64,000 nucleotides of DNA. It comes from an uncultured Acidobacteriota bacterium (lineage in GTDB: Bacteria; Acidobacteriota; Vicinamibacteria; Vicinamibacterales; UBA2999). This document shows, in pieces, positions 6,626-54,134 of this stretch. The stretch spans positions 198,999-262,998 of the forward strand of contig CAVRUW010000009.1 of NCBI GenBank assembly GCA_963724485.1, given 5' to 3'. Within the stretch, counting starts at the first letter, position 1. Every line of letters begins with the position of its first letter. The notes below the pieces were generated by a model, which was not told the origin of the DNA, made no database searches, and was given only the letters and a program-made list of their open reading frames with translations. The position numbers were made by a program, and so were the translations under genes.

Positions 6626-6646
6626 GATCCGTTTTAGAATGACTCG

Positions 6647-18826: not shown

Positions 18827-18839
18827 TGGGAATACGTTA

Positions 18840-18908
18840 GCCACGAAGCACGAAGAACACGAAGGAAACGAATCAATGTTGTCTTCGTGTCTTCGTGCCC
18901 TTCGTGGC
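18840..18908. repeat. CACGAAG-family word-repeat hairpin
   Basis: The left arm gccacgaagcacgaagaacacgaagg pairs with the right arm gtcttcgtgtcttcgtgcccttcgtggc. Confidence 0.85.
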
Positions 18909-18921
18909 TACGTTCTACGAA

Positions 18922-21744: not shown

Positions 21745-21964
21745 GGCGCGCCTCCGCTGGGCGAAAAACAAGCAAGTTGGAGCAAACAGCTGAGGATGCT
21801 ACCACCAATGGGGGTGGATCGGCGCCATGGCCATCACTGGGATGGGCGCATTTCGCGAGGGGCCGGTGGCGGTGGCTCTCGAGGAGGAAGGAGTTGGGTG
21901 CAGTGCACACTCGGTGAAGCAAAGCTAGGACGCCTACTCCTGGGGCCGGCCGAACAAAACGAAA

Positions 21965-23274: not shown

Positions 23275-23577
23275 GCCACGATTGGGTGATTGGGCGAGTG
23301 AGGTGATTGCAGTGCGTGATTGGGGGATTGGGTGATTGCAGTAGGGGATTGGGTGATTACAGTGGGTGATTTGGTGATTGCAGGGGTGATTTGGTGATTG
23401 CGGGGATGGCCAGTGAGGGTAGCGGATAGGCAACTGGACGATTGAGAAACTGGGCAGTTCGAGGATAGCCGGTTTGGGCGAACCGGGCATTCTGCCTCAA
23501 TCGCTCAATCCAACCACCCAATCACTCAATCGCCATTGCAATCACCCACTCACCCACTCACCCAATCAATCAGTGTT
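23275..23577. repeat. about 300-bp composite inverted repeat built from about 20-nt GGTGATTGGGTGATTGCAG-type units
   Basis: The left arm (23275-23405) has about 6 degenerate tandem units. The right arm (23497-23577) is their reverse complement (caatcacccactcacccactcacccaatc). The central section is about 90 nt and contains the hairpin ccggtttgggcgaaccgg. Confidence 0.8.
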
Positions 23578-28161: not shown

Positions 28162-28257
28162 CACGAGGCACGGAAGCACAGAAACACGGAATCAAATCTT
28201 ACGATCAGTTGACAGGGCACTTGCCTAACCAGTTCCCGTGTTTCCGTGTTTCCGTGG
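28162..28257. repeat. CACGGAA-type word-repeat hairpin inside the his operon (hisF-hisA spacer)
   Basis: The left arm cacgaggcacggaagcacagaaacacggaa pairs with the right arm ttcccgtgtttccgtgtttccgtgg. The loop is about 40 nt. Confidence 0.8.
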
Positions 28258-33972: not shown

Positions 33973-36900
33973 ATGCTCACGGCTGGCCAAACCCTTTCCC
34001 ACTTCAGGATCCTCGGCGAAATCAGCCGCGGCGGCATGGGGATCGTCTATCGCGCCTTCGACACGCGCCTCGAGCGGGAGATTGCGTTGAAGGTGCTGCC
34101 GCCGGCGCTCCTCGCCGACCCCGACCGCAAGCGGCGATTCGTCCAGGAAGCCCGCGCCGCGGCAGCCCTCAACCATCCCCACATCGGCGTCGTTCACGAG
34201 ATCGACGAAGACAGCGGCGTGACCTTCATCGCCATGGAGCTGATTGAAGGGCGCCTGCTCACCGACACGATGAGGCGCGAACGGTTGACGATCGGACGCA
34301 TCCTGACACTGGCGATCGAGATCGCCGGCGGGCTGACACGCGCGCACGAGAAAGGAATCGTGCACCGCGACCTCAAACCCGGCAACGTGATGGTGACCGA
34401 GGAAGGCCACTCCAAGATCATCGACTTCGGCCTGGCCAAGCTGGTCGAAACGCCCGAACAGCCAGAGACGGAGCGTGGAGAAACCACTGTCGCACATCGC
34501 ACGCAGCCCGGCGTGGTCATGGGGACCACGGCCTACATGTCGCCGGAGCAGGCGCGTGGCGACCCCGTGGACTACCGAACGGACGTGTGGAGCTTCGGCG
34601 TGCTGCTCTACGAGATGGTGACGGGGAGCCTTCCTTTTCAAGGTCGCACCGGCACCGACGTGGTCAGCGCGATCCTTCGCGATCCCACGCCACGATTTCC
34701 CACCGTCGGCGACGAGGTGCCGCGCGGGACCTTGGAACAGCTGCAGCGCGTGGTCGACCGCTGCCTCGAGAAGAATCCGCGCGAACGCTATCAGAACATG
34801 CGGGACACGGTCCTCGATCTGCGAGCGATCGATCGGCACTCGGATGCATCGATGGCTTCGCACGTTGTCGATCGACGAGCTCCGTCGCGCACGGTGGTGT
34901 GGGCGGCCATCGCCGGTGCCGCGCTATTGGCGCTCGGTGGCTGGTTGTTCATGACCAGAGCACCGAGGGAAGGCGTAGATGCGGAAAACGCTCGACCGGC
35001 GGCAACGTTCCGTCGATCGGTGGCGGTGATGGAGTTCCAGAACTTGTCGGGACGGCCCGAAGCCGATTGGCTTTCAACCGCACTCTCGGAGCTGTTCTCC
35101 TCCGAGCTGGCCGCGGGCGAGACGCTGCGCACGATCCCTGGCGAAACCGTCGCGCGGGGACGGATCGAACTCGCGCTCGCGCGCAACGAGAGCTTCGGGC
35201 GCGAAACGTTGGCGCGCATCCGGACGAATCTGGGATGTGACATCGTGCTGGTCGGTTCGTACCTGTCGATGGGAGAAGCGGGCGGGCGCAAACTCCGGCT
35301 CGACCTTCGTCTCCAGGATGCGGTCATGGGCGAAACGGTGGCGTCCATCACTGACCTCGGCAACGAGTCGGATCTGCTCGAGCTCGTGTCACGCACGGGG
35401 GCTCGACTGCGCGAACGCCTCGGTGTCGCCGGCCTCTCCGCCGAGTCTGTCGCCACGGTTCGCGCGTCGCTGCCGGCGAACCAGGAAGCCACGCGTCTCT
35501 ATGCCGAAGGGCTCTCGCGACTTCGGCAGTTCGAGACCATGAAGGCGCGCGATCTTCTCCAGCAGGCGGCGACGGCTGACCCGAAGCACTCGTTGATCCG
35601 GTCGGCGCTCAGCGAAGCCTGGTCGGGCCTTGGATACGAAGCCACAGCTCGCCGTGAAGCGCAGGTCGCATTCGATCTTTCCGGCCCCCTCTCACGCGAG
35701 AACAAGCTGCTGGTCGAAGCCCGCTATCGCGTCGTCACTCGCGATTGGGACCGGGCCATCGCGATCTTCGGGACCCTCGTCGAGTTCTTCCCTGACAATC
35801 TCGAGTACGGCCTGGGACTCGCCAGTGCCCAAACATCCGCATCCAGGGCCCAGGCCGCTATGGGAACGGTCGAGAAGCTGCGTCAATTGCCGACGCCGGC
35901 CTCGCTCGACCCCCGCATCGATCTCGCCGAGGCCTCCGCTGCCTATTCGCTGTCCGACTACAAACGGGCAGAAACGGCGGCCGCGCGGGCCGCAACGAAG
36001 GGTGCGGCACACGGTGCTCCGCTGCTCGTCGCCCGGGCGAAGCTGCAACTGGGCAACGCGACCGATCGGCTGGGCGACAAAAAGAGCGCCGTCGCGGCCG
36101 CGGCCGAAGCCCGGCAACTGTTCGCCTCGGCAGGCGATGTCGCTGGTGTCGCCCGCTCGCAATTCCTCCAGGCCGTGATCCTTCGCGCGCAGGGGAATCT
36201 GACCGAGGCGAAGGCACTGGCCGAACAGATTCTCGCCACCGGACGCGAGACCGGCGATCAGCGGGTGATGGGGAACGTGCTCACCCAGCTGGGCATCATT
36301 CAGTCGCAACAGGGCGACATCGCGGGCTCGCTCGTCCCGCTGCGCGAGGCGCTCGCGCTATATCGAAAGCTCGGTGACAACAACGCATTGGCCAGAGCGT
36401 TGAACAACCTCGCCGCATCGCTTCAGTTGAGCGGGCAGCTGGACGAAGCGGCGACGATGTACGACGAGAGTCTGACGCTCTACCGCGGGTCCGGCGAACT
36501 TAGCGGCGTGGGTTACGCGCTGAACAACCTGGCCGAGGTTCGCGAGACGAAGGCAGAACTCAAGGAAGCCAGGCGCCTGTACGAAGAGGCGTTGACCATT
36601 CGGCGCGATCTGGGCTTCAAGGAAGGGATTGGATACACCGGCACGCGGCTGGGTGCGCTGCTGATTGCGCAGGATGACTTCGCGGGTGCACGGGCGAGGC
36701 TCGAGGAGGCAATCAAGGTTCGCACCGACCTCAACGCCGAGGGCGACGTCGCCGACACTCGATTGTTTCTCGGGACGCTGGCCATCGAGGAGCGTCGCCC
36801 GGCCGAAGCCGAGCAACTGGCACGACAGGCGGCGCAGGTGTTCGAGAAGGAACGCATGACCGATCGCTCAGCGGCGGCACATGACCTGCTCGCACGCGCC

Positions 36901-37248
36901 CTGCTGGCCCAGAAAAAGAACGCCGAGGCGCGCGCGGTGATCGATCGTGGTCGCACGCTAGCCGGTGACACGCAGGATCGATACGTGCAATTCGCCGTTC
37001 GACTCACCGCCGCACGGGTGCAAGCCGAAGAAGGTCAGCTCAAGGAAGCGCATACTGCGCTTCAGGCACTCCTGGCGGATACGCAGAAAGCCGGCTTTAC
37101 AGAGGTCGGGCTGCACGTCCAGTACGCGCTGGGTGAACTCGAGTCACGACTCGGACAAGGTCGTGGCCGTTTGACGGCGCTGCAAAAGGACGCCGCCAAT
37201 CGAGGCTATTTGCTCATCGCTCGAAAGGCCGGCCAGCCGCGCTCCTGA
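33973..37248 (+). CDS. Hanks-type Ser/Thr protein kinase with a TM segment and a long C-terminal TPR region
   Basis: Start at the ATG at 33973 (MLTAGQTLSHFRILGEISRGGMGIVYRA). Motifs ALKVL, HRDLKPGNVMV, DFGLAK and YMSPEQ. The TM segment is VVWAAIAGAALLALGGWLF, followed by about 600 aa of TPR. Confidence 0.85.
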   Translation: MLTAGQTLSHFRILGEISRGGMGIVYRAFDTRLEREIALKVLPPALLADPDRKRRFVQEARAAAALNHPHIGVVHEIDEDSGVTFIAMELIEGRLLTDTMRRERLTIGRILTLAIEIAGGLTRAHEKGIVHRDLKPGNVMVTEEGHSKIIDFGLAKLVETPEQPETERGETTVAHRTQPGVVMGTTAYMSPEQARGDPVDYRTDVWSFGVLLYEMVTGSLPFQGRTGTDVVSAILRDPTPRFPTVGDEVPRGTLEQLQRVVDRCLEKNPRERYQNMRDTVLDLRAIDRHSDASMASHVVDRRAPSRTVVWAAIAGAALLALGGWLFMTRAPREGVDAENARPAATFRRSVAVMEFQNLSGRPEADWLSTALSELFSSELAAGETLRTIPGETVARGRIELALARNESFGRETLARIRTNLGCDIVLVGSYLSMGEAGGRKLRLDLRLQDAVMGETVASITDLGNESDLLELVSRTGARLRERLGVAGLSAESVATVRASLPANQEATRLYAEGLSRLRQFETMKARDLLQQAATADPKHSLIRSALSEAWSGLGYEATARREAQVAFDLSGPLSRENKLLVEARYRVVTRDWDRAIAIFGTLVEFFPDNLEYGLGLASAQTSASRAQAAMGTVEKLRQLPTPASLDPRIDLAEASAAYSLSDYKRAETAAARAATKGAAHGAPLLVARAKLQLGNATDRLGDKKSAVAAAAEARQLFASAGDVAGVARSQFLQAVILRAQGNLTEAKALAEQILATGRETGDQRVMGNVLTQLGIIQSQQGDIAGSLVPLREALALYRKLGDNNALARALNNLAASLQLSGQLDEAATMYDESLTLYRGSGELSGVGYALNNLAEVRETKAELKEARRLYEEALTIRRDLGFKEGIGYTGTRLGALLIAQDDFAGARARLEEAIKVRTDLNAEGDVADTRLFLGTLAIEERRPAEAEQLARQAAQVFEKERMTDRSAAAHDLLARALLAQKKNAEARAVIDRGRTLAGDTQDRYVQFAVRLTAARVQAEEGQLKEAHTALQALLADTQKAGFTEVGLHVQYALGELESRLGQGRGRLTALQKDAANRGYLLIARKAGQPRS

Positions 37249-37251
37249 TGC

Positions 37252-38848
37252 TCATTGTGTCGCCGGTCGTCCCGCGATGACCTTTCGGGGAAGCTTCTCC
37301 GGCCAATTCGCGGTGTACCACGCGAAGACTGCCGCGACGGTCGCCTGCTGAATGAGATCGTCCCGCTGAACCCGATCCACGAAATCCATGTTGGAGTGAT
37401 GCGTCCGCGAGTTGTATTCGAGCCGTTCCTGGATGAACTGGAAACCCGGGATGCCAGCCGAATCAAACGACGAGTGATCGGTCGCACCGACCGAACGCGG
37501 ACCGACGAGCTCGGCATCGAGATCCTCGACTGCCTCGATCCATTCGCGGAACAGCGCCATCGCGCCGAGATTGCCTTGACCCCAGATGCCGCGGATCTTT
37601 CCGGTGCCATTATCGAGGTTGTAGTACGCCGCCACCTTCGCATGGGCCGGCTTCGGGCTGGTCTCGGTCCCGTAATGCTCTGCGACGTAGGCACGTGATC
37701 CCAGGAGCCCCTGTTCCTCACCACCCCACAGCGCGACGCGAATCGTGCGGCGAGGACGCAGCCCGAGGCTCTTGATGATGCGGACCGCTTCCATCATCGC
37801 CGCCGATCCCGTCGCATTGTCGGTGGCGCCCGTGGCGCCGGTCGTCGTGTCGAAGTGCGCGCCCATGATCACCACTTCGTCCGCGAGATCGGTTCCAGGG
37901 ATCTCGGCGAGCGTGTTGATCCCGTTCGGTGTCCCCGCGGCTTCAGGATAGAACGTCGCTTGAATGTTCATCTCGACGCGAACCGGAATGTTCTTCTCGA
38001 GAATGCGAACCATTCGGTTGTAGTGCTCGACGGCAATCGTCGCCGATGGCACCTGGGCCGGGATCTTGGGATCGCGGCTGCCGCCACCACTCGGGAAGAT
38101 CGTGCCGCCATCGATGCGTTGCGTCTGCCACGACAGGTCGCTGCCGCCCGCCGACATGTCGCTATCGGAGCCGCGCTCGAGAACCGCGGCCACGCCTTCG
38201 GCCACGTAGAACTGCGCGATGCGCTCGCTTGTCAGAGGCGCAGCCCCACTCGCCCCAGTAGCCCCACCAGCTCGCACCGGTCCCACCAGCCGAAGGGATC
38301 GGCGTCGAAAGCGCTTCGGCGATGTCTTCCTCATTCATCCGAAGAATGATTCGGTCCTCGAGCATCCGCACGCGACGAACCGGCTGCGGCAGGACGATCT
38401 TGTCCTTGAGCGTGCCCTTGTACTTGGCGAGATCCGCTTCGCTGCGGATGTCGACACGAATGACGTCGCCGCTGATGGTGCCCTTGGTCGAGGGCGAGAA
38501 CGTACGCGGATAGCCGATGATCGGCTGCGGCTCGGGCGCAATCATGTGCACCGAAAACCGCTCGACGCGCCAGCCCTGGCCAAACGCAAAACGTTCCTGA
38601 TGAACGTTGGCCAGCCCCCACTCGGTGAGCTGCTTCATCGCCCATTCGCTGGCCCGCTGAAAGTTCGGCGTGCCCGTGACCCGCGGCCCGTAAACGTCGC
38701 TCATCCAGCCGACGTGTTCCATCACCCGCGAGCGCGTCAGGGCTTCCTGCTTGATGCGCGAGATAGTGCCAAGATCGATGGGGGCCTGCGCAGGAACTGT
38801 TACGACGGCTAACGCCAGGCCGGCAAGCAGAGCAAACGCGCGTTTCAT
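37252..38848 (-). pseudogene. M28-family (PA-domain) aminopeptidase interrupted by a +1 frameshift near 38250-38290
   Basis: The N-terminal part is in frame 38848 (signal MKRAFALLAGLALAVV, running to ...MNEEDIAEALSTPIPSAGGTGAS). The C-terminal part is in frame 38334 (GGATGASGAAPLTSERIAQFY...HFDTTTGATGATDNATGSAAMMEA...WGGEEQGLLGS). The join lies in the G-rich gctggtgggg repeats. Confidence 0.7.
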
Positions 38849-38889
38849 CTGAGTCCTCGAACGAAGAAACCGGGCCAATAAAAAAGACA

Positions 38890-38957
38890 GCCACGAAGGG
38901 CACGAAGTCACGAAGGAGGATCCAACCATTTCTTCGTGTTCTTCGTGCCTTCGTGGC
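38890..38957. repeat. CACGAAG-family word-repeat hairpin
   Basis: The left arm gccacgaagggcacgaagtcacgaagga pairs with the right arm cttcgtgttcttcgtgccttcgtggc. Confidence 0.85.
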
Positions 38958-38987
38958 TACGTTTTTCGGGAGCCGCCGTCTCCCTGC

Positions 38988-41024
38988 CTACTGCTGCTGC
39001 GCGGTCGTTGTGACCGCCGGCGATCTCTTGTGCTTCTCGAACCAATGCCGCAGATATAACTGCGTGCGAATGAAGTTCGACGGCCGTGACGTCGTGCCGT
39101 GCCACTCCTCGTTGAAGCGAATCATCGCCGTTGGCACCTTCAGCAGCTTCAGCGCGCTGTAGAACTGCTCGGTCTGCGGCATCGGCGTGCGCAGGTCCTG
39201 CACGCCGGTCATCAACATCGTCGGCGTCTTGACGTTGCCAACGTAGGTGAGCGGGGAGCGTCGCAGGTGCTCCGACGGGTCTTCCCACGGCAGCTTCTCG
39301 AAGTTGTAGTACCAGCTCGCACCGTCGGTCGTTCCGACGAAACTGACCCAGTCGATGACGGGACAGTTGGAGGATGCCGCGGCAAAGCGATCGGTGTGAC
39401 CAACGACCCACGCCGTGAGCACGCCACCGCCGCTGCAACCGGTCACGAACATGTTGCGGGGATCGACGAAGCCCTTCTTCAACAGCTCGTCCACACCAGC
39501 CATCAGGTCGTCGTAGTCCTTGCTCGGATACGCGCGCATGATCTGGTTGCCAAACGAGCTGCCATAACCCGTGCTGCCTCGCGGGTTCGTGTAGAGAATC
39601 ACATAGCCATTGGCAGCGTGTTCTTGCCAGCCGTAGTTGAAGCCGACGCCGTACATGCTGTGCGGCCCGCCATGGATGTGCAGCTGCATTGGGTACTTCT
39701 TGGCGGGATCGAAATCCGGCGGCGTGACGTACCAACCCTGAACTTTCAGGCCGTCCGGCGCCGTGTACCACATCTCAGTGACCTGGCCGAGCTTCTTGCC
39801 AGCAAGAATGTCGTCGTTGACGGACGTCAACTGCTTCACCTGCCCGGGCGCGCTCAAGTCGTAGCTGACGATGTCAGCGGGCTTCTGCGGTGAGGACAGT
39901 GTGCCAACCGCTTTGCCTTTGGCCATGCTCGACGTCGTGAGCATGTGCGTGCCCTTGGTGACGACCTGAACCTCGTCGGGCCGGCTTCCAGCCAACGGCA
40001 GGAAGTACAAGTTTTGCGAGCCCGAGTCCTGCGCGGTGAAATACAGGCCCGTGCCGTCTTCCTTCCACATCACGCTCTGCGGCGAACGATCCCAGGCGCC
40101 GGAGACCATCCGTGGACTACCGCCGTCGATGTTCATGACGTACAGCTTGCTGTCCTGCCACGTGTCCTTCGACCAGTCGTTGCCGGTGTAGGCAATGCGC
40201 TTGCCGTCCGGTGACACCTGCGGATTGCCGTCGGGACCCTTTCGTTTCGTCAGCTGCGTGATCGCACCGGTCTCGGTGTTGACGGAGTAGATCTCCGACT
40301 CGCGCCACTGGTATTCAGCGTCCTCGGTGCGCAGCGAGCCAAAGAGGATCTGCTTGCCGTCCGGGGTCCACTCGACCCCGTTGTGGTGCCAGTTGCCATC
40401 GGTGAGCTGGCGGGGCGTCCCGCCGGTCGCGGGCACGACAAAGATGTGCCGATACACATCGTCATCAAAGCCCGTGCCGTCCTGCCGATAGTCGAGCCGT
40501 TCGACAATGCGCGGGGTTTCGACCCAGCGAGCGCCTTCGGGAGCTCGCGGCATCTTGATCGGCCACGACACTTTCGATTCGACGTTCATCACGAACCCGA
40601 CACGCGTGCCATCAGGCGACCAGGCGATTGCACTCGGCGCCTTTTCAACGCGTGTGATCTGCGATGTAGCGCCTTCCGCATCCATGTAGCGAACGAAAAT
40701 CTGCGAACCGCGCGGCTCGCCGGTGGCCGTGTAGGCGATTCGGTCGCCGCTTGGCGACCATCGGGCGTTGCTGCCTCGAACCAGGAAGCGGTTCTTGGTG
40801 CCGTCCGCATTCATGATCCAGAGCGAGGTCTCGCGGCGGTCCGCCTGTTTGTCGACCCAGCCGCGGGTATAGATGATTTGCGTGCCGTCCGGTGAGACTT
40901 GCGGATCGGTCACGGTTTCCAGCTCGAGATACAGGTCGAGGTTCAGGCGGTCCGAACCGGGTGCCTGAGCTGCGATCAATGTCGGCAAGCACGCGAGCGC
41001 GAAGGCTCCCGCCAGTCGCTTCAT
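38988..41024 (-). CDS. exported S9-family serine peptidase with a TolB-like propeller
   Basis: The ATG at 41024 is preceded by GGGGGAGGG. Propeller motifs VSPDGTQIIY, WSPSGDRIAY, WSPDGTRVGF, WTPDGKQILF and VSPDGKRIAY. The nucleophile elbow is GCSGGG. Confidence 0.85.
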   Translation of the reverse strand: MKRLAGAFALACLPTLIAAQAPGSDRLNLDLYLELETVTDPQVSPDGTQIIYTRGWVDKQADRRETSLWIMNADGTKNRFLVRGSNARWSPSGDRIAYTATGEPRGSQIFVRYMDAEGATSQITRVEKAPSAIAWSPDGTRVGFVMNVESKVSWPIKMPRAPEGARWVETPRIVERLDYRQDGTGFDDDVYRHIFVVPATGGTPRQLTDGNWHHNGVEWTPDGKQILFGSLRTEDAEYQWRESEIYSVNTETGAITQLTKRKGPDGNPQVSPDGKRIAYTGNDWSKDTWQDSKLYVMNIDGGSPRMVSGAWDRSPQSVMWKEDGTGLYFTAQDSGSQNLYFLPLAGSRPDEVQVVTKGTHMLTTSSMAKGKAVGTLSSPQKPADIVSYDLSAPGQVKQLTSVNDDILAGKKLGQVTEMWYTAPDGLKVQGWYVTPPDFDPAKKYPMQLHIHGGPHSMYGVGFNYGWQEHAANGYVILYTNPRGSTGYGSSFGNQIMRAYPSKDYDDLMAGVDELLKKGFVDPRNMFVTGCSGGGVLTAWVVGHTDRFAAASSNCPVIDWVSFVGTTDGASWYYNFEKLPWEDPSEHLRRSPLTYVGNVKTPTMLMTGVQDLRTPMPQTEQFYSALKLLKVPTAMIRFNEEWHGTTSRPSNFIRTQLYLRHWFEKHKRSPAVTTTAQQQ

Positions 41025-41128
41025 AAACCCTCCCCCTTTTTCTGGCGCAGATTGTAGCGCGGGTGCCCATGCCTGGAACCGGCTCAAAGCGTCCGCCCTG
41101 GCGCTCGAAGTCATACTAAACTGCTTAG

Positions 41129-41908
41129 GTGGCGACCAGCGCGCGTCGAATGCTCATGTTCGGGCTGCTCGTGGCATTTGCCGCCAGCCCTGCCGCGCAG
41201 CGACCAGTGCGCAAGGAGCTGCTCGTTGCCGCCGCTGCCAGTCTGAGCGTTCTAGGACCACAACTCGCGAAAGCACTACACGACGCGACTGCGATCGACG
41301 TGCGGTTCAACTTCGCTGGATCGAACACCCTGGCGCGTCAGATCATCGAAGGCGCTCGAATCGAGATATTCATCAGCGCTGATCCGACGCAAATGGACGT
41401 CGTTGAACGCGCCGGGCGGCTCGTACCCCACACGCGCGTCGACGTCATCAGCAACCAACTCGTGGTGATCACGTCGGTCGGACAACGACCGCAGCAGTGG
41501 CCGGACGCGTTGGGATCCCCGGCGATCCCTCGTGTCGCGATGGGCGATCCGGCGGCAGTGCCGGCTGGCGTGTACGGCCGTCAGTGGCTCGAGACCGTCC
41601 GACTCTGGCCGGCTGTCGGTTCGAAGGTGGTGCCGCTTCCCACGAGCCCGGCCGTGTTTGCTGCGGTTCGTGCCGGAGGCGCGCAAGCGGGCATCCTCTA
41701 CTCGACCGATGTCCCTTCTGGAGAGCAATCGCAAGGCGTCTCAATCGTGCATCGTGTCTCCGATGCCGATGCTCCGGAGATTGTGTATCCGGCGGCCGCG
41801 ATAGTCGGCGGCCGCGTATCCGAGGCGCGAAAAGTCGTCGAGTTCCTCCGTACCAAGGAAGCGCTCGAGGTTTTCGTTGCCGCGGGGTTTCGGCCGCTCT
41901 CCCGCTGA
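41129..41908 (+). CDS. modA: molybdate ABC transporter substrate-binding protein
   Basis: LLVAAAASLSVLGPQLAKA...RFNFAGSNTLARQIIEGARIEIFISAD is typical of ModA. The start may instead be the ATG at 41150. Confidence 0.85.
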   Translation: MATSARRMLMFGLLVAFAASPAAQRPVRKELLVAAAASLSVLGPQLAKALHDATAIDVRFNFAGSNTLARQIIEGARIEIFISADPTQMDVVERAGRLVPHTRVDVISNQLVVITSVGQRPQQWPDALGSPAIPRVAMGDPAAVPAGVYGRQWLETVRLWPAVGSKVVPLPTSPAVFAAVRAGGAQAGILYSTDVPSGEQSQGVSIVHRVSDADAPEIVYPAAAIVGGRVSEARKVVEFLRTKEALEVFVAAGFRPLSR

Positions 41909-42209
41909 ATGAGCGCGCCTGCCCTCGGCATTGCGGGTTTCAGTGCCCTGGTGGCATTGGTCGCGACGCCGTCGTCCTGCCACCGGGTGTCACGCTCGGA
42001 TGGGCAAGCAGTTTCCCGGTCGCACAATCGTTGAAACGCTCGCGATGCTCCCGATGGTGATGCCACCGGTAGCGACTGGTCTCATCCTGCTGCATTTGTT
42101 TGGTCGACGAAATGCACTCGGACCTCTCGTTCGAAATTCGGCTCGAGCAAGGCGAGTTCGTCTTGCGCGCAGGTTCGCCGTCACAGGTGCTATAGCCGGG
42201 CGGCGACGT
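41909..42209 (+). pseudogene. decayed modB (and possibly a modC N-terminal fragment)
   Basis: ModB-like segments lie in three different frames: MSAPALGIAGFSALVALVATP; PPGVTLGWA; KQFPGRTIVETLAMLPMVMPPVATGLILLHLFGRRNALGPL. A short DLSFEIRLEQGEFVLRAG piece then ends in a stop. Confidence 0.55.
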
Positions 42210-43382
42210 ATGCTAGATGGCAGGAACGTGCTGACAAGAGGCATTCCACATCTCGTGATGGGGATGGGACTCGCGGCTTGGATGTCCGTCGCGGCGCAGG
42301 CCCAGCAACCCGCCGATGGGCCGAAAGCTGTCGTGCTGGTCAAGACCTTTGCCGACGGTCGAATCACTCGCACGGTCGTCAGCGCCCGCAAGACCGGATC
42401 GTGGACGCCGTTTTTCCCGCGACTCAAGAGCTGGACGCCACCGCCTGGGAAAGCGCCGATCAGCGCTCTGCGGGTGTCGCACGTTCTCACCGAACAAGGC
42501 GTGCTCGTGCAGGTCTCGATCCTGCGCGGATCCCCGCATCAGGAGGAAGAACAAGTCGAGTCCGTGACCGTGCGGGCGGATCAACCCACGGTCGTTGAAC
42601 GACTGCGCGACTTTGGTCTCGAACCAGTAACGTTCTCCTTGATCCCGCTCGATGCGACGACGCTGGTTCCTCCTCGAGTGGACAACCAGACAGCAGGACT
42701 TTCGGTTGAAAACATCGAAATGGTCCTCGATCCCGACCCAAGGTATCGCGTGACGGTCAGGAACCTGACGCAGAAACCCGCGATCATGTTTTTCGTGAAG
42801 ACGTTCGTGGCCGATCAACTGACCTCGAGCGGGCGGCAAGGCAACCAAGACGGCACTGCCTTGATCGGCCCTGGAGACGCCTTTGAATTCCTTGTTAGTG
42901 GGTCGAGCCGTTCGAACCCCACGGCGAGCGGCTGGTCACCCGGTTCGCTCGACGCGATTGAGCTCGCGGCGGTGCTGTGGGATGACGGCACGTTCGAAGG
43001 AGAGCCCGAACATGTCGCGACCTCTCTTCTGCTGTACGTGGGTCGTCGCGCCCAGCTTCGGCGAGTGGTCGACATCATGAACGCCGCGATGGATCCGGCG
43101 GACGCGGTAAAGACAATTACCCGCCTGCGGACGCAGTTCGAGGCGCTGCCCGTAAGGGTAGACGCAACGACACGCGAAGCGGCTCTCGAGCGACTCAAGA
43201 TGGTTCTTTCAACGCCGCCGGCGGACTACGAGCAAATCATCGAAGCTGCACTGGCCTCTGTGAGGACTGGTGCCCTTCGAGACGTCGGCGACGCACCAAC
43301 GTCCTCACCGGCATTTTCACAGTGGCATCGCGAGATGGTGGCGCAGTACAACACCGCCCGAGCCAATTTGGCGAGGCGCTGA
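42210..43382 (+). CDS. hypothetical exported protein
   Basis: In-frame ATG at 42210, with alternative Met codons in VMGMGLAAWMSVAAQAQQ giving a signal peptide. There is no recognisable motif. Confidence 0.5.
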   Translation: MLDGRNVLTRGIPHLVMGMGLAAWMSVAAQAQQPADGPKAVVLVKTFADGRITRTVVSARKTGSWTPFFPRLKSWTPPPGKAPISALRVSHVLTEQGVLVQVSILRGSPHQEEEQVESVTVRADQPTVVERLRDFGLEPVTFSLIPLDATTLVPPRVDNQTAGLSVENIEMVLDPDPRYRVTVRNLTQKPAIMFFVKTFVADQLTSSGRQGNQDGTALIGPGDAFEFLVSGSSRSNPTASGWSPGSLDAIELAAVLWDDGTFEGEPEHVATSLLLYVGRRAQLRRVVDIMNAAMDPADAVKTITRLRTQFEALPVRVDATTREAALERLKMVLSTPPADYEQIIEAALASVRTGALRDVGDAPTSSPAFSQWHREMVAQYNTARANLARR

Positions 43383-43384
43383 TC

Positions 43385-43885
43385 TTGCCTGTGATTTTGG
43401 AAAAAGCACACGCTCAAGACGTCCCGGGCATCGCCGCTCTTCGAACAGCGGTCGCCGAGCGTCTGACCCGCGATTTCGGTAAGGGACACTGGTCACAGGG
43501 CGGCACCGAGAGCGGCGTCATCCGGGATATGGCCATCCCCGGCCTCTATGTCGCGCGGGATGGTGGAAAGTTGATCGCAAGCCTGCGGCTGGCTGCCAAG
43601 AAGCCATGGGCGATCGATCCCGCCTACTTCAGCGCCAGCCAGTCGCCGCTCTACCTGACCAGTATGGCCGTGGATCCGGATCGGCAACGTCAGGGGGTTG
43701 GTCGCGGCTGCATGATCGACGCGCTACGGATTGCGCGCGAGCGCTCTGCCAACGCGATTCGTCTCGATGCCTACGACAGCGTGGCCGGCGCCGGGGGTTT
43801 TTACGAAAAGTGCGGATTTCGCGAGGTCGGTCGCGTCGTCTATCGAAACACCCCGCTCATCTACTACGAGATGTTAATCGGATAG
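43385..43885 (+). CDS. GNAT-family N-acetyltransferase
   Basis: The acetyl-CoA motif is RQRQGVGRGCMIDALRIA and the length is GNAT-like. The start is the TTG at 43385 (GAGG 8 nt upstream) or the GTG at 43391. Confidence 0.7.
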   Translation: MPVILEKAHAQDVPGIAALRTAVAERLTRDFGKGHWSQGGTESGVIRDMAIPGLYVARDGGKLIASLRLAAKKPWAIDPAYFSASQSPLYLTSMAVDPDRQRQGVGRGCMIDALRIARERSANAIRLDAYDSVAGAGGFYEKCGFREVGRVVYRNTPLIYYEMLIG

Positions 43886-43964
43886 TTACAAGTTCCAAGT
43901 TACAAGTTACCAACCAAGGAACTCTGAACTGAACTTGTAACTTGTAACTTGTAACTTGTAACTT
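43885..43964. repeat. CAAGTTAC-family word-repeat hairpin
   Basis: The left arm gttacaagttccaagttacaagttacc pairs with the right arm gaacttgtaacttgtaacttgtaacttgtaactt. It ends 6 nt before the next ATG. Confidence 0.85.
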
Positions 43965-43970
43965 ATCGCC

Positions 43971-45371
43971 ATGATCCACTCACCACCGGTGATCGCTCTC
44001 TTCTTCACGCTGATCGTTAGCAGCGATGCGTTCGCGCAGCGAACGATGCGCTTCGACTACTTCCACACCGGAAATGCGAAGCAGGAGATGTTCAGCGTCG
44101 ACCGCGTGGTGATCGAACCGCTCGAATGGCCGGGCAGCCCCTCGAAGACCATCGATCGCACGAACCTTGGCAAGTACTTCTTCGAGGTTCAGGATCGCGG
44201 GAGCGGTCGCGTCCACTACTCGCGCGGCTTTGCGTCGGTCTACGGCGAGTGGGAGACGACAGACGAGGCGCAGAAGGTCAATCGAACCTTCCACGAGTCA
44301 CTACGATTTCCCGAACCCTCTGGACCCGTACGGATTGTCGTCCGGAAGCGCGACGCGAAGAATCAGTTTCAGGAAGTGTGGAGCGCCGAGGTCGATCCCA
44401 AGGACATGTTCGTGGATCCCTCGACGCCGCCGTCGCCAGGCCCGCTCATCACGATCGAACGAAACGGCGACCCCTCGACGAAAGTGGATTTCCTGCTGCT
44501 TGGCGATGGCTACACCGCCGCCGAACGCGGCAAGTTCGAACGTGATGCGCGCAGGATGGTCGACATTCTCTTTGCCACATCACCCTTCAAGGAGCGTCGC
44601 CGCGACTTCAACATTTGGGGGCTGGTGCCGGCCTCGGCCGACTCCGGCATCTCTCGCCCCTCCACGAACGTCCATCGTGCCTCGCCGATCGGTACGACTT
44701 ACGACGCTTTTGGTTCTGAACGCTACATCCTGACATTCAACAACCGTGCGTTCCGCGACATCGCGGCATTTGCGCCCTATGAGTTCGTGGAGATTCTGAC
44801 CAACACCCGGACCTATGGCGGCGGTGGCATCTTCGGACAATACGGAACGGTCGCCGCGGACAGCGACCAGGCGCCCTATGTGTTCGTCCACGAGTTCGCT
44901 CATCACTTTGCCGCGCTCGCGGACGAGTACTACACGTCGCCGGTCGCGTATGCGGCTGCGACGGGCCCCCGCATCGAGCCGTGGGAACCCAACGTCACGG
45001 CTCTCCTCGATCCCAAGACATTGAAGTGGCGCGATTTGGCAGAACCGGGAACTCCCCTGCCCACACCATGGTTGAAGGAGGAGTTCGAGAAGGCCTCGCG
45101 GGCGTTTCAGGAACGGCGCGGGAAGATCCGAGCCGAGAATCGTCCGGAGTCCGAGATGGAGGCGCTGTTTGCCGAGGTCCGCGGCTTCGAGCTGAAGCTT
45201 TTCGCGCGCGAGAAATATGCAGGGAAGGTTGGGGCCTTCGAAGGTGCCAACTACGAGGCCACCGGCTATTTCCGGCCCGAGGTCGATTGCATCATGTTCA
45301 CGCGTAGCCCGGCGTTTTGCGCCGTCTGCAAACGCGCGATCGAGAGCATCATCGCGATGTATACAAACTGA
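43971..45371 (+). CDS. M64-family (IgA-peptidase-like) zinc metallopeptidase
   Basis: HEFAHHFAALADEY is the zinc motif. The N-terminal FDYFHTGN module is present. Confidence 0.8.
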   Translation: MIHSPPVIALFFTLIVSSDAFAQRTMRFDYFHTGNAKQEMFSVDRVVIEPLEWPGSPSKTIDRTNLGKYFFEVQDRGSGRVHYSRGFASVYGEWETTDEAQKVNRTFHESLRFPEPSGPVRIVVRKRDAKNQFQEVWSAEVDPKDMFVDPSTPPSPGPLITIERNGDPSTKVDFLLLGDGYTAAERGKFERDARRMVDILFATSPFKERRRDFNIWGLVPASADSGISRPSTNVHRASPIGTTYDAFGSERYILTFNNRAFRDIAAFAPYEFVEILTNTRTYGGGGIFGQYGTVAADSDQAPYVFVHEFAHHFAALADEYYTSPVAYAAATGPRIEPWEPNVTALLDPKTLKWRDLAEPGTPLPTPWLKEEFEKASRAFQERRGKIRAENRPESEMEALFAEVRGFELKLFAREKYAGKVGAFEGANYEATGYFRPEVDCIMFTRSPAFCAVCKRAIESIIAMYTN

Positions 45372-45376
45372 CGGAC

Positions 45377-45482
45377 GAGCCTCAGAGACTCAGAGAGTAA
45401 TCAAGTTACGAGAATTGAGCCACGAAGGGCACGAAGTCACGTCCTTCGTGGCTGACTTCGTCCTGTGTCTCTTACTCAGTGA
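45377..45482. repeat. composite word-repeat element (outer CTCAGAG arms, inner CACGAAG arms) between convergent genes
   Basis: The outer arm gagcctcagagactcagagagtaa pairs with cctgtgtctcttactcagtga. The inner segments are ccacgaagg (45420-28), acgaagtca (45431-39), ccttcgtgg (45443-51) and tgacttcgt (45453-61). Confidence 0.8.
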
Positions 45483-47042
45483 TCACTGCTGCGTCGTCGG
45501 TGTCGCGCTCTTCCGCTTCGAATCGAAAAAGTCGAAAGCCTTCGGAATATTCGGCACCACCATGTCGGTGTGATTGCCGCCAGGCACTTCGATGTAGACG
45601 TGGTCGACACCAAGCTTCTTCATCTCGGCCACCATCGTGCGCGATCCGGAGACATTGACGGTTGGATCCGCATCACCGTGCACGACGATTTGCGGGATGT
45701 GCTTGAACGTCGCAATCGTCGAAGGATTGCCAAGCCCTGAAAACGGCGCCAATGCCGCCCAGATGGTCGGATGCTTCGCGGCAATGGCCCAAGTGCCGAT
45801 GGCGCCCATCGAATGGCCCATCAAGTAAATGCGTGATTCGTCGATCTTGTAGTCGGCGCGTGCTCGCTTCAGTACTTCCATCACATCCTGCTCGCTCAGC
45901 TCCACGCGCCGGCGATCCGCTGGCGATGCATCCGTCGGCAGGCTGAACCCATAGAAGCCATCGACTCGGAATCCCAGCGGCGCTACGACGATGTAGCCGC
46001 GCTGCTCGGCGAGGGTGGGAACGGTCTTGGCGTAGCCGTCCATGAACGAGTCTTCGTTGGCGCCGAGGCCATGGAGCGCGACGATCAGCGGGTATGGCTT
46101 GCTGCCGTTGTAGCTGGTGGGGATGTACACGCGGTACGGCATGATCTCTTTCGCGGCGTCCAGCACGTAGTGGCGTTCGAAACCTCCTGTCCGGCCAACG
46201 AACGGATTCTTGCCACCCTTGGCCGCCGCTGCGATCGACTCTGCGGCTGCGATTTCGGTCGCGACGTTGAACTGACCCAACTCCACGGCGCCGCGATTGA
46301 TCTTCCGGATGTAGTCGGCCGGGTAATGAAGGTCGTCACGGATCTCGGCCGGCGCCGCCGCCACGGCGGCCTCGATCTGACGCAATCTGGCGTCGAGACC
46401 CCTCTGGAGCGACATCCTGAGGCTGACCGTTCCGAGCGATCGCTCACCGTCCCTGACCTCGACACTCAATACCTGGGGGCCGTCGGCAATCTTCGAGAAA
46501 TCCAGATCCATCGCGTAGGGCGATTCGCGCAGATCGCGAGCCACCTGTTCGAACTTGCCGATCTCTGTTCCCGGTTCGCTCGTAGCTGGTTGTCCAGGAG
46601 GGCCTGGAGCAGCAGGCGGCCGGATCGTGGCGATGGCCGTCAGCGGTTTCGTGAGCGTCGTCGCGGGCGCGAAGATCTGCTCGATCCGGACCGTCTGGGG
46701 CTGCGAGGAGTCCAGGACGACGTTGCTCGTCCGAAGCACCAGCGAGCTCTGGAACTCCTCGACCTCGGTCCAGGGGCGGCCCGCCAGTAAGGCGAGACCC
46801 TTCGCGAAGAGTCTTCGTACGTCGCCGGTCCGGCCTGCACGCGTGGCCTCCGCCAGCTCCTTGTCGACCTGATCGAGCTGTACTTTGAGCTCGCCGTCAG
46901 GCTTGGTCGTACTTTTCTGCGTGTTGTAACGAACACGCAAGGAGTTCAGGTTGGGGAGCGCCTGCGCCCACGCACTGGTCGACCCGACGAGAAGAGCAAT
47001 CAAGGGAAGCGCAGCCGTCCAAGTCTTCAAACGTGTGGACAT
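45483..47042 (-). CDS. exported protein with a C-terminal alpha/beta-hydrolase (esterase/peptidase) domain
   Basis: Start at the ATG at 47042 (MSTRLKTWTAALPLIALLVGSTSAWA). Motifs LIVALHGLGANE, GHSMGA and VVHGDADPTV. Confidence 0.75.
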   Translation of the reverse strand: MSTRLKTWTAALPLIALLVGSTSAWAQALPNLNSLRVRYNTQKSTTKPDGELKVQLDQVDKELAEATRAGRTGDVRRLFAKGLALLAGRPWTEVEEFQSSLVLRTSNVVLDSSQPQTVRIEQIFAPATTLTKPLTAIATIRPPAAPGPPGQPATSEPGTEIGKFEQVARDLRESPYAMDLDFSKIADGPQVLSVEVRDGERSLGTVSLRMSLQRGLDARLRQIEAAVAAAPAEIRDDLHYPADYIRKINRGAVELGQFNVATEIAAAESIAAAAKGGKNPFVGRTGGFERHYVLDAAKEIMPYRVYIPTSYNGSKPYPLIVALHGLGANEDSFMDGYAKTVPTLAEQRGYIVVAPLGFRVDGFYGFSLPTDASPADRRRVELSEQDVMEVLKRARADYKIDESRIYLMGHSMGAIGTWAIAAKHPTIWAALAPFSGLGNPSTIATFKHIPQIVVHGDADPTVNVSGSRTMVAEMKKLGVDHVYIEVPGGNHTDMVVPNIPKAFDFFDSKRKSATPTTQQ

Positions 47043-47046
47043 CGGT

Positions 47047-49002
47047 CTACTCCAGGCTGAAAGCGACGAGCTCGGCGTTGAGTCCGCCACCAATGGCAAT
47101 CACCACGAATTGGCGGCCCTGATAGAGATACGTCATTGGGGCGTGAGCCGGCGACAGCGGCATCTCGTGCTCCCACACAATGGCACCGGTCCGTTTGTCG
47201 AGCGCCCGGATCTTGGGGGTCTCGCGCGGCAACGGCTTGCTCAACGGACGACCCTGAAAGGGCTCTGCCGCTTCACCGCCGCGAAGGCCCTCGCCGCCGT
47301 GCGTGTGAAACAGCAGCGTGCGCGTCACGATTGTATATCCGCGCGCGTCGACACCCAGTGGCGGGAGCTTGAGATGCTCGATCAACGGATGATTGCGCGG
47401 GCCATCGCCGGTTGCCGTCATCCACGCAATCGTGCCGGCATTGAGATCGTAGGCGGTGATGCGACTGTATGGGCCCTTCCAAATCGGCAATCCGTCGATG
47501 GTCGGCAATGATTGCACCCCGCCCCGCCGATAACGAAAGTTGCTCTTCGCTGAATCGGGCTCGACCAGTTGGACGACGATCGGACTGCGATACGACGGCA
47601 CATACAACAGGCCGGTTTCAGGGTCGAAGGCGGCGCCGCCGAAATTGGCGCCGCCCGCCCATCCCGGCATTTGCACGGCGCCTCGAAGCGACGGGGGTGT
47701 GAACAACGGGCCGTAATCGAACCGCTTGAGCAGTTCGAGCGCTTGCGAGCGTAGCTCCGGCGTGTAGTCGATCAAGTCGTCTTCGCCGAAGCCCTGCGAT
47801 TCAAAGGGTGGCGGTTTGGTTGGAAATGGCTGCGTGGCGGATAGCCGTTCACCCGGCACCGTTGAAGGTGGCACCTTGCGCTCCTCGATAGGCCACACCG
47901 GCGTGCCAGTACGGCGGTCGAAGACATATGCAAAGCCTTGCTTGCTGACCTGTATGGCGGCACGGATTCGTTTCCCACTCACCGTGATATCAGCCAACGT
48001 CGGCGCAGCCGGAAAGTCGTAGTCCCAGACACCGTGATGCACGCCTTGAAAATGCCAGACGCGCTTACCGGTGCGCGCGTCGAGCACGACCAGGCTCTCG
48101 GCAAACAGGTTGTCACCCGGTCGATGTCCGCCGTAGAAATCGTTCGTCGGCGTGCCAAACGGCAAATACACATAGCCGAGATCTTCGTCGGCGCTCATGT
48201 ACGTCCAGACGTTGGTGTTCCCCGTGTACTCCCACGATCCGTCTTCCCAGGTGTTGTGGCCGAACTCGTCCGGGCGCGGAATGGAATGAAACGTCCACAG
48301 TCGCTTGCCGGTCACCACATCGAAACCGCTGATATCGCCCTTGGGCGCCTCCTTCCTCATTGGTCCATCGCTGATGCTCGCTCCGACCACGAGCACGTTG
48401 CGACAGATCACCGGTGCGGAGGTCACCGCGTAGTTGGTTGCCCGCGTGACGTGGCTGAGGCCGTCGACGAGGTCGATTCGTCCACCCTGGCCAAAGCCTG
48501 GGTCGAGCTTTCCGGTTGTGGCATCAATCGCCAGCAGATAGGCGTCGCCCGTGCCCATGAACAGCCGCTCGCGACTGCCGTCGGTCCAGTAAGCAAGTCC
48601 GCGATGCACAAAGCCAAGATTGGTGGGCCGTCCCGCCTTCCAGCTTTCAGGATCGAAGGACCACCGCAAGGCTCCACTACCTGGATCCAGAGCGGCCACC
48701 TGTCCGAGCGAGGTCACGGTGTAGAGCAGACCGTTCGCCATGATCGGAGTGTCCTGGTAGGCACCGGGCCTGGACAACGGATTGGCGCTGACGATGGCGT
48801 TGTCCGGAGAGATCCACCGCCACGCGATCCTGAGTTTGCCGACGTTGTCCTTGGTGATTTGATCCAGCGGCGAGTACTTCTGGCTCAAAGCGTTGCCGGC
48901 GTAGTGGCGCCACTCTCCGGGCGTGCCAGAAGGATTGTTCTGTCCTTGTATGTCGAAGGTGACCAAAACGGCGAGGGTCAGAGCGAGCCTGTGTGGTCGC
49001 AT
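47047..49002 (-). CDS. PQQ-dependent dehydrogenase (8-bladed propeller quinoprotein)
   Basis: ORF trimmed to the ATG at 49002 (MRPHRLALTLAVLV). EWRHYAGNALSQKYSPLDQITKDNVGKLRIAWRW and repeated W-motif blades are present. Confidence 0.85.
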   Translation of the reverse strand: MRPHRLALTLAVLVTFDIQGQNNPSGTPGEWRHYAGNALSQKYSPLDQITKDNVGKLRIAWRWISPDNAIVSANPLSRPGAYQDTPIMANGLLYTVTSLGQVAALDPGSGALRWSFDPESWKAGRPTNLGFVHRGLAYWTDGSRERLFMGTGDAYLLAIDATTGKLDPGFGQGGRIDLVDGLSHVTRATNYAVTSAPVICRNVLVVGASISDGPMRKEAPKGDISGFDVVTGKRLWTFHSIPRPDEFGHNTWEDGSWEYTGNTNVWTYMSADEDLGYVYLPFGTPTNDFYGGHRPGDNLFAESLVVLDARTGKRVWHFQGVHHGVWDYDFPAAPTLADITVSGKRIRAAIQVSKQGFAYVFDRRTGTPVWPIEERKVPPSTVPGERLSATQPFPTKPPPFESQGFGEDDLIDYTPELRSQALELLKRFDYGPLFTPPSLRGAVQMPGWAGGANFGGAAFDPETGLLYVPSYRSPIVVQLVEPDSAKSNFRYRRGGVQSLPTIDGLPIWKGPYSRITAYDLNAGTIAWMTATGDGPRNHPLIEHLKLPPLGVDARGYTIVTRTLLFHTHGGEGLRGGEAAEPFQGRPLSKPLPRETPKIRALDKRTGAIVWEHEMPLSPAHAPMTYLYQGRQFVVIAIGGGLNAELVAFSLE

Positions 49003-50143: not shown

Positions 50144-50153
50144 CCGGTGGCCG

Positions 50154-50242
50154 GTGTCAGTTGTCAGTTGCCAGTTGTCAGTTCAAAGGCAACCGAGTGC
50201 TTCTCTGAACTGGGAACTGGTAACTGATAACTGGAAACTGAC
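50154..50242. repeat. CAGTTGY-family word-repeat hairpin between convergent genes
   Basis: The left arm gtgtcagttgtcagttgccagttgtcagttcaaagg pairs with the right arm ctctgaactgggaactggtaactgataactggaaactgac. Confidence 0.85.
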
Positions 50243-52559: not shown

Positions 52560-52579
52560 CGGGATTTCCTTTCGACTGG

Positions 52580-52672
52580 GAGTTGCAAGTTCCACAGTTC
52601 CAAGTTACAAGTTCAGTTTGCCAGTTGCGCAGCGCACGCGGTTTGTAACTTGAAACTTGTAACTTGTAACTA
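52580..52672. repeat. CAAGTTAC-family word-repeat hairpin
   Basis: The left arm gagttgcaagttccacagttccaagttacaagttcag pairs with the right arm gtttgtaacttgaaacttgtaacttgtaacta. Confidence 0.85.
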
Positions 52673-54042: not shown

Positions 54043-54047
54043 ACCCA

Positions 54048-54134
54048 CAGTTTCCAGTTACCAGTTACCAGTTCAAAGGGGGTTGCGAGTTAGCCTGAAC
54101 GTCTCTTTGAACTGACAACTGGCAACTGACAAAC
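54048..54134. repeat. CAGTTAC-family word-repeat hairpin
   Basis: The left arm cagtttccagttaccagttaccagttcaaagg pairs with the right arm ctctttgaactgacaactggcaactgacaaac. Confidence 0.85.

Follow-up and report, generated by a model that had tools for sequence, protein, structure and literature searches.

The four CACGAAG loci in the window, the 64,000-nucleotide stretch of DNA analysed here (C9:198999-262998 of an assembly of 6.78 Mb with 63% G+C), belong to one family of non-coding foldback elements that is probably a non-autonomous version, without the gene, of a GxxExxY nuclease cassette. A probability of about 60% was assigned to this reading, which includes the inferred copying of the elements by the nuclease or by a host enzyme. 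The comparisons described below established the common descent and dispersal of the copies, the arms that they have in common with the nuclease cassette, their location at gene 3' ends, their very fast turnover and the replacement of one word family by another at one site. How the elements are copied, whether by mobility, gene conversion or templated synthesis, is unsettled and the mechanism is inferred. What is added here is the recognition that the copies correspond to a nuclease cassette without its gene, the complete cassette being kept as a conserved resident copy, and that no DNA in the region is more unstable. The literature searched yielded no description of the arms, nor of their link to GxxExxY genes.

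CACGAAG hairpins in the window

The original prediction was that a 23-nt core, GCCACGAAGG(A/G)CACGAAGTCACG, is present at three positions of the window with a close variant at a fourth, 18840. Exact matches were recovered at 6508-6530, 38890-38912 and 45419-45441, all on the plus strand, against an expectation of 0 derived from 100 dinucleotide shuffles. The fourth locus is real but calls for a new description, as its best match to the 23-mer lies on the minus strand at 18886-18908 with one mismatch and represents the right arm, the left arm of this copy (18840-18864) being a variant without one spacer (GCCACGAAGCACGAAGAACACGAAG). The right arms of the 18840 and 38890 loci do both terminate in CTTCGTGGCTACG, as had been noted, at 18900-18912 and 38949-38961, respectively. 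The CACGAAG heptamer occurs 32 times in the window (12.6 +/- 3.6 expected), clustered at the four loci, which on reading consist of two to three CACGAAG words, a short loop and two to three CTTCGTG words. All four copies are intergenic, lying between protein genes and near a stop codon. These copies, the arms that enclose two of them and the further hairpins built from other words are as follows, none having been assigned a strand:

6501-6581, CACGAAG hairpin copy 1, with left arm 6508-6530, right arm 6550-6576 and a loop with GATCCAAA
6466-6627, composite hairpin around copy 1, with outer arms of CTCAGAG/CACAGAG words at 6470-6497 and 6599-6625
18833-18919, CACGAAG hairpin copy 2, with left arm 18840-18864 and right arm 18883-18912 (MFE -46.9 kcal/mol)
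38883-38964, CACGAAG hairpin copy 3, with left arm 38890-38915, loop GAGGATCCAACCATTT, right arm 38932-38957 and clamp GCTACGTTTTT
43884-43965, hairpin of the same build with the word GTTACAA, ending 6 nt upstream of the ATG at 43971
45376-45482, outer CTCAGAG-word arms enclosing copy 4 (MFE -41.2 kcal/mol)
45412-45462, CACGAAG copy 4, an internally deleted remnant with two left words (45421-45436) and one right word (45444-45450)
50153-50242, CAGTTNC-word hairpin with centre CAGTTCAAAGG...CTGAACTG
52580-52672, CAAGTTC/GTTACAA-word hairpin
54046-54131, CAGTTAC-word hairpin

Copy 1, in which the third word of the left arm is degenerate (CACGACG), lies 47 nt past the stop of gene 5085-6461 and has an RNA MFE of -42.6 kcal/mol. 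The composite hairpin around it occupies the gap between genes 5085-6461 and 6647-7867, with an MFE of -89.5 kcal/mol and a z score of -5.3 for the outer complementarity. Copy 2 was placed between the stop of the minus-strand gene 18922-21771 and the following gene on that strand, which starts at about 18827, and copy 3 (MFE -45.6 kcal/mol) 33 nt past the stop of gene 38988-41114, also on the minus strand. Copy 4 (MFE -27.0 kcal/mol) and its outer arms are found in the convergent gap between genes 43971-45371 (plus strand) and 45483-47099 (minus strand), which the outer arms occupy. Scanning of the whole window against Rfam gave no match to any family at the gathering score, only sub-threshold look-alikes of microRNA precursors being returned for 38887-38960, and no match to rRNA was found within the window.

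Genome-wide census and element anatomy

A search of the whole genome with the 23-mer, the check that had been proposed for the dispersed-repeat claim, returned 16 exact copies on 10 contigs and 54 copies at no more than one mismatch, with 0 for the reversed control. Restriction of the 23-mer to the window sites would have refuted the claim; since it was found far beyond them, this outcome can be set aside. A total of 117 word clusters were identified, of which 74 contained at least three words and 24 were complete with the order +++---; this order was the dominant pattern, and the reverse order, with CTTCGTG leading, was essentially absent. Arms, defined as two or more tandem words, numbered 126, of which 47 were paired, with loops of 6-53 nt in 45 of the 47 pairs, and the total number of hairpins was estimated at ~60-75. 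These numbers, together with clamps outside the words that are common to the copies and a loop motif present in a subset, bear out the claim that the loci represent one dispersed repeat and not hairpins that evolved independently. When tandem 7-mers were scanned without regard to the word, CACGAAG led the compact hairpins with 45 copies, the next family having 9.

The elements are non-coding, measure 60-100 nt with arms of 24-27 nt, and follow the design aaACGTAGC-(CACGAAG+1-2 nt)x3, a loop 15-40 nt long that is AT-rich, and (CTTCGTG+1-2 nt)x3-GCTACGTTt. Alignment of the flanks of 57 copies extended the palindrome into aaACGTAGC...GCTACGTTt, with A and T tracts mirrored about the stem; aaACGTAGC, itself within the palindrome, is the majority consensus of the clamp, for which the variants GATAGC, TTGAGC and TTTAGC were also found. 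The median predicted RNA folding energy was -42.7 kcal/mol. The AT-rich loops are mostly unrelated between copies, apart from a motif, AAGATCCAA, that was present in ~14 of 65 gene-less loops, including those of copies 1 and 3 of the window.

Words and spacers differ in their conservation. In complete copies the words are identical (more than 90% conserved) and the 1-2-nt spacers are nearly random; only 4 of 24 complete copies are symmetric, facing spacers show no complementarity in length or sequence, and decayed words are not matched by a compensating change on the opposite arm. Plain decay from a single master would have blurred words and spacers alike; the words are either directly constrained, as by binding, or renewed word by word. 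A word array of another family was found within 70 nt of 21 of 56 copies (38%), compared with 32 of 323 control gaps (10%; p = 1e-6). Systematic nesting of the copies within outer arms, as seen for copy 1, was considered and rejected, as it holds for only 1-3 of 56 copies in the genome.

Genomic position

The preference for sites immediately after stop codons that had been suggested was also found genome-wide. All 66 hairpins lay outside called genes, at a median of 46 nt from the closest gene end, and convergent gaps were 2.4-fold enriched. The gaps holding these hairpins were tail-tail in 33 cases, tail-head in 30 and head-head in 3, with 13.8, 37.2 and 15.0 expected, respectively (p = 6e-9). 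The gene calls used were crude, being long ORFs with high third-position G+C that cover only 50% of the genome. Intrinsic terminators were examined as a possible identity of the elements and rejected: a scan of 36000-47000 flagged neither the 38890 nor the 45419 copy, and the loops are 15-40 nt long. A run of at least four T after the stem was present in only 12 of 57 copies.

Turnover between strains and species

Among species of the same genus, the site orthologous to 38890 was found to have a CACGAAG hairpin with an unrelated loop in one (G010), a hairpin of CTCAGAG/CACAGAG words in four (G005, G006, G008 and G011) and nothing comparable in five (G001, G002, G004, G007 and G009). Comparison of 20 loci of G005 with G006 and G008, whose flanks are 83-100% identical (mostly at least 92%), revealed deletions of half a hairpin, gaps that differ entirely and a further switch of word.

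The same instability was observed between near-identical strains. Strain ERZ25039547 (ENA; 99.3-99.9% identity) has, instead of the whole 194-nt gap that contains copy 1 and its outer arms, a composite of CAGTTNC words centred on a G+C-rich hairpin; the two flanks show just 3 differences in 2876 positions and 3 in 1346. The exchanged tract (6461-6654) begins at the final base of the stop codon and extends through codon 5 of the next gene. A more distant strain, ERZ25039591 (96.5%), retains the composite of the window type at copy 1, and the exchange in the closer strain is therefore the derived state; its copy 2 has one base changed. Relative to ERZ25039547, copy 3 has a 1-nt indel in a spacer, at 38947, and copy 4 is the product of a 31-nt internal deletion, a strain of 99.3% identity having 31 more bases between 45439 and 45440. 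Hairpins of the other words have changed likewise when compared with the sister strain: that at 43884-43965 carries four differences, that at 50153-50242 has one additional 7-nt unit in the sister strain (at 50153-50171), that at 52580-52672 is overlapped in its left arm by ten differences at 52565-52606, and that at 54046-54131 has no right half in the sister strain (44-nt gap). Across a 21.4-kb stretch aligned with ERZ25039547, word hairpins make up 2.5% of the sequence and contain 111 of the 195 differing alignment columns (57%) and 7 of the 55 clusters of differences (p = 5e-4). Two more copies outside the window showed 4 and 2 differences against a background of 0.3%. Word hairpins are thus the main sites of change and the most unstable DNA in the region.

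No clean empty site or simple insertion, and no target-site duplication, was found in about 25 orthologous comparisons (11 same-genus genomes, 20 G005 loci and, over about 88 kb, three near-identical strains). Since the clamp's ACGT is self-complementary, it cannot be read as a target-site duplication. In the absence of a clean filled and empty pair and of a duplication, transposition has not been demonstrated and the copying mechanism can only be inferred. As the fastest-changing DNA between near-identical strains, the hairpins can be used as strain markers. They can also mislead gene callers, with ORFs running through the arms, and probably cause breaks in short-read assemblies, as suggested by the many homologues found on contigs of 1-2 kb.

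The GxxExxY nuclease cassette

At C18:51243-51707, between comEC and mazG, a three-word left arm and a two-word right arm (at 51243 and 51691) bracket an ORF of 132 aa that scored 130.7 bits against PF13366 and 133.7 bits against TIGR04256 (GxxExxY). The left arm is one base off the 23-mer, and the sequence from this arm to the start codon, GGGGATGATCCAATG, resembles the loop motif AAGATCCAA of the gene-less copies, which fits an origin of the latter by internal deletion. The same cassette lies between the ComEC gene and a convergent MazG gene in two metagenome contigs encoding proteins 83% and 72% identical to that of C18. Its layout there is aaaCGTAGC-(CACGAAG)3, ribosome-binding site, gene and (CTTCGTG)3-GCTACGTTTTT, with ends that match the gene-less consensus. 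Neighbouring ORFs read through the arms in both contigs. Among relatives from several genera and one other family, armed genes are intact in G013, G016 and G029 and broken or truncated in G006, G008, G010, G023 and G005, and several of them share the neighbourhood. By analogy with the RAYT gene for REPINs, the armed comEC-mazG copy behaves like a vertically kept master copy.

The GxxExxY family is of unknown function and has undergone multiple transfers between divisions (PMC3424549). Four residues of catalytic type (E37, D76, E86 and K88) were invariant across 52 homologues, and the AF2 model (pLDDT 92.7) has a minimal PD-(D/E)XK fold, the nearest solved folds being those of Cas4 SSO0001 and lambda exonuclease, which are only distant (E about 0.01). 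A sequence search of the PDB gave no match for the 132-aa protein. Two further GxxExxY genes of the genome are associated with inverted arrays of other words (CAGGGAG-type and CACGGAA-type), and most of its seven PF05635 genes (four-helix-bundle, "23S rRNA IVS protein") lie between inverted arrays of yet other words. Carriage on cultured phages or plasmids was rejected for lack of any blastn match, in a search where matches may be masked by the low-complexity filter.

Association and distribution across genomes

Arm counts in 41 relatives were all-or-nothing even inside one genus, ranging from 0 to 124. Of the 10 arm-rich genomes, 8 had an armed GxxExxY gene, intact or decayed, as did 2 of the 31 arm-poor ones (Fisher nominal p = 2e-5). 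Among 121 genomes of the family, a protein like that of C18 was encoded in 13 of the 19 that are arm-rich and in 36 of the 102 that are arm-poor (chi-square estimate about 7, p about 0.01). Neither test was corrected for phylogenetic relatedness. Exceptions occur on both sides, with arm-poor genomes that have an armed gene (G029 and G014 and, by coordinates, G085 and G115) and arm-rich genomes without a CACGAAG-armed gene (G001 and G015). Because armed genes are found where gene-less copies are almost absent (e.g. G085 and G029), the gene is not sufficient.

A scan of species genomes for GCC(CACGAAG N1-2)x3 returned at least 117 stretches. Among the matches listed were MAGs labelled as Acidobacteriota/Vicinamibacterales, Phycisphaerae, Planctomycetota, Opitutaceae, Bacteroidota, Deltaproteobacteria, Gemmatimonadota and Actinomycetota, as well as isolates of Dyella, Streptomyces and Verrucomicrobia LW23. 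Single matches in isolates may be unrelated tandem repeats, an explanation that does not extend to multi-copy inverted pairs. CACGAAG arms bracket a GxxExxY gene in a deltaproteobacterial MAG and a four-helix-bundle PF05635 gene in a Planctomycetota MAG. The deltaproteobacterial protein is 50% identical to both the CACGAAG-armed and the CAGGGAG-armed paralogues of the present genome. A tracking of the arm word by protein clade was considered and, given this equal identity to paralogues with different words, found to be unsupported. Given two types of cargo and equal paralogue identity, the word follows neither cargo type nor protein clade, which argues against a simple model in which each nuclease reads its own word.

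Proposed mechanism and alternative explanations

In the proposed scheme, the full cassette consists of arms bracketing a gene of ~130 aa for a minimal PD-(D/E)XK nuclease (GxxExxY, PF13366/TIGR04256), and the gene-less copies would be non-autonomous derivatives with the same arms. It is inferred that copying of the elements into new sites is carried out by the nuclease or by a host enzyme that acts on the hairpin. Gene-less copies are tolerated in their position just downstream of genes. A transcript of such a copy would fold into a hairpin of about -43 kcal/mol, and it is further inferred, without expression or cleavage data, that this RNA hairpin may act as a 3'-end or RNase III processing structure.

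Much of the positional evidence could also be accommodated by structural elements selected by the host (3'-end stabilisers, weak bidirectional terminators or RNase III sites) that were spread by ordinary recombination or gene conversion without a mobility enzyme, the cassette merely having similar flanks. The strong bias to gene 3' ends and convergent gaps, the stable folds (median -42.7 kcal/mol) with A/T tracts mirrored around the stem, and the orthologous sites that keep a hairpin while the word changes are all consistent with this, and the exchange at 6461-6654 extends into the stop codon on one side and into the first five codons of the following gene on the other, which is how a short tract of recombination would look. 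The 7-bp repeat hairpins of cyanobacteria have been proposed as transcript stabilisers (PMC2670836). However, structure by itself does not demand that one 7-mer recur at about 100 sites and across many phyla, decayed words are uncompensated on the other arm, many close relatives have no hairpin in the same gaps, and the patchy range of 0 to 114 arms within one genus looks like bursts; in addition, at least four T in a row were found in only 12 of 57 copies, and the terminator scan does not flag the elements. Selection by the host alone was judged unlikely, though it is the strongest of the alternatives. An improbable reading is that the word arrays are recognised by an oligomeric protein that binds DNA or RNA, with word conservation reflecting this recognition and dispersal being secondary. 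Heptads bound by omega/RHH (ribbon-helix-helix) proteins and spaced triplets bound by TRAP provide analogies for such arrays. Words conserved to more than 90% beside spacers and loops that are free to vary, the symmetry of only 4 of 24 complete copies, an orthologous site of G000 and G010 at which the same word is kept and the loop cannot be aligned, and the many different words, each with its own arrays, would be expected of binding sites; yet no candidate binder has been identified, the 8-9 bp spacing matches no obvious DNA-face periodicity, the dozen words of one genome would need a dozen specificities, and one and the same word accompanies both cargo proteins.

Word-wise templated synthesis or local slippage, by which arms would be built in place from a 7-nt template with 1-2 untemplated bases or from a seed palindrome, was given very little weight. 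It would explain why words are identical and spacers and loops unrelated between copies, the change in unit number between near-identical strains (one more unit at 50153-50171), the long uninterrupted (CACGAAGC)n(CACGAAGA)n arrays of a verrucomicrobial genome and the minimal GCCTCAGAGGC palindrome of one genome where relatives have full arrays. Against it, the clamps outside the words are common to the copies and a loop motif is common to some, no polymerase or reverse transcriptase is linked to the elements, and slippage should duplicate spacers together with words, which was not seen. The least credible reading is that of classical REP/REPIN elements moved by a RAYT (Y1, IS200-like) transposase. 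It is suggested by the palindromes being extragenic, by the GTAG-containing head (CGTAGC) that most copies have, and by the one Y1_Tnp gene of the genome. That gene, the sole PF01797 gene (C1:544594-544935), was rejected as the driver: a different palindrome, GGGACTGTCCCC..., borders it on either side, which constitutes a classical REP/RAYT arrangement of another family, and no CACGAAG cluster lies near it. Furthermore, one relative (G023) has 67 arms and no PF01797 match, and Y1_Tnp does not track the arms, being present in 9 of 10 arm-rich and 22 of 31 other relatives (p = 0.4).

Comparison with known repeat systems

The derivation of the gene-less copies from the nuclease cassette, which remains the preferred reading, has its closest functional analogy in the REPIN/RAYT system, although the link to RAYT itself failed the test. 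In both systems, short extragenic palindromes number tens to hundreds and mostly follow genes, a single gene with the same repeats on its flanks is inherited vertically, the repeat populations are patchy between close relatives, and copies cluster with other repeat families in BIME-like mosaics. They differ in that the flanked gene here encodes a 130-aa PD-(D/E)XK nuclease and not a Y1 transposase, in that the arms here are phased 7-mers with free spacers, and in that the same word crosses phyla. A broader and only tentative proposal is that of a REPIN/RAYT-like partnership built on another enzyme. The single-copy, vertically inherited comEC-mazG GxxExxY nuclease would recognise hairpins of phased 7-nt words and copy, convert or maintain them genome-wide, and the same design, with interchangeable words and a four-helix-bundle protein as alternative cargo, would recur across most phyla, making rRNA intervening sequences (IVS) and STRR members of one superfamily. 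Were they linked to a hairpin repeat that is mobile or maintained, the very abundant GxxExxY/PDDEXK_3 and four-helix-bundle "23S rRNA IVS" families would gain a function, none having been assigned to them so far. The rRNA intervening sequences, the cyanobacterial STRRs and the soil-bacterial repeats described here may then be one kind of element.

Bacterial MITEs, such as Correia/NEMIS, Nezha and Chunjie, are likewise small and non-coding with terminal inverted repeats, and resemble deletion derivatives of a gene-carrying element with the same ends. In contrast to these, no target-site duplication was seen here, no recognised transposase is involved, and the inverted repeats consist of tandem words and not of unique sequence. 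The STRR of heterocyst-forming cyanobacteria are tandem 7-bp units that form intergenic hairpins of unknown function (PMC2670836). The present elements share with them the arrangement of tandem heptanucleotide units as intergenic hairpins and differ in phylum (the host here being an acidobacterial MAG, as judged by the names of close homologues, Vicinamibacterales, and of related contigs), in their words and in having 1-2-nt spacers where STRR units are contiguous. No link of STRR to GxxExxY or four-helix-bundle genes was found in the literature searched. STRR inside the RNase P RNA gene were reportedly described by Vioque (1997).

In the 23S rRNA IVS of Coxiella, an S23p ORF lies between inverted repeats in an element regarded as selfish and horizontally acquired, the stem of which is cut by RNase III (PMC4990558; bioRxiv 10.1101/2024.02.27.582315). 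Unlike the IVS with S23p / 23S_rRNA_IVP ORFs (Coxiella, Leptospira), the copies described here are intergenic, not in helix 25 or 45 of 23S rRNA, and most have no ORF; cutting by RNase III is only inferred, and the cargo in this lineage is a nuclease and not a four-helix-bundle protein. A small ORF between inverted repeats that form a long stem is common to these IVS and the cassette, and the PF05635 genes of the present genome lie mostly between inverted word arrays, with one such gene between CACGAAG arms in the Planctomycetota MAG.

Differences from the sister strain beside the 38890 hairpin

The window was compared with a near-identical sister strain (ENA ERZ25039547) around the third copy of the CACGAAG hairpin (38883-38964). 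A 1-nt indel at 38271-38274 relative to this strain, which is 99.3% identical, converts the gene for a 526-aa Peptidase_M28 protein into two overlapping ORFs, and may be a genuine frameshift or else an error in the long-read assembly. Closer to the hairpin, 17 differences were found within 64 nt (38765-38828), far exceeding the background of 0.7% and falling in the signal-peptide coding portion of the adjoining gene. The same contig also carries, beyond the window, a segment of 2.6 kb (C9:181995-184638) that the sister strain lacks. The split gene and two other putative word-repeat hairpins of the window are as follows:

37252..38334 and 38162..38848, Peptidase_M28 gene, split into two ORFs by the 1-nt indel at 38271-38274
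23275-23577, word-repeat hairpin, GGTGATTG composite
28162-28257, word-repeat hairpin, CACGGAA-type, within the his operon

A separate REP/RAYT system

The sole Y1-transposase (RAYT-like) gene of the genome, located outside the window (C1:544300-545100), carries its own palindromic repeats, GGGACTGTCCCC / GTCATCGGGGGACAGTCC, on both flanks and constitutes a separate, classical REP/RAYT system. Its REP type was found again at C9:179398-179500.

CACGAAG arms and arrays in other genomes

At the GxxExxY cassette of two other loci (L217:1-404 and L218:1-404), the ComEC ORF in public gene calls extends across the left CACGAAG arm and apparently overlaps the GxxExxY start, and CACGAAG arms are thus concealed within annotated coding sequence. 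In a Phycisphaeraceae MAG (L081:1673-1990 and 5293-5522), CACGAAG arms spaced 180-270 nt enclose inner inverted arrays of a different word, AACGCCAGG, and no ORF of the GxxExxY or PF05635 cargo families was detected between them. Verrucomicrobia bacterium LW23 contains an unbroken tandem array consisting of (CACGAAGC)n and then (CACGAAGA)n (L064:6165-6320), with no inverted partner within the stretch read. A tandem run of seven CACGAAG hairpin units with a period of ~155 nt, observed in a Vicinamibacterales MAG (JBFWOG010000008.1, L013:6450-7700), is a locally amplified cluster.
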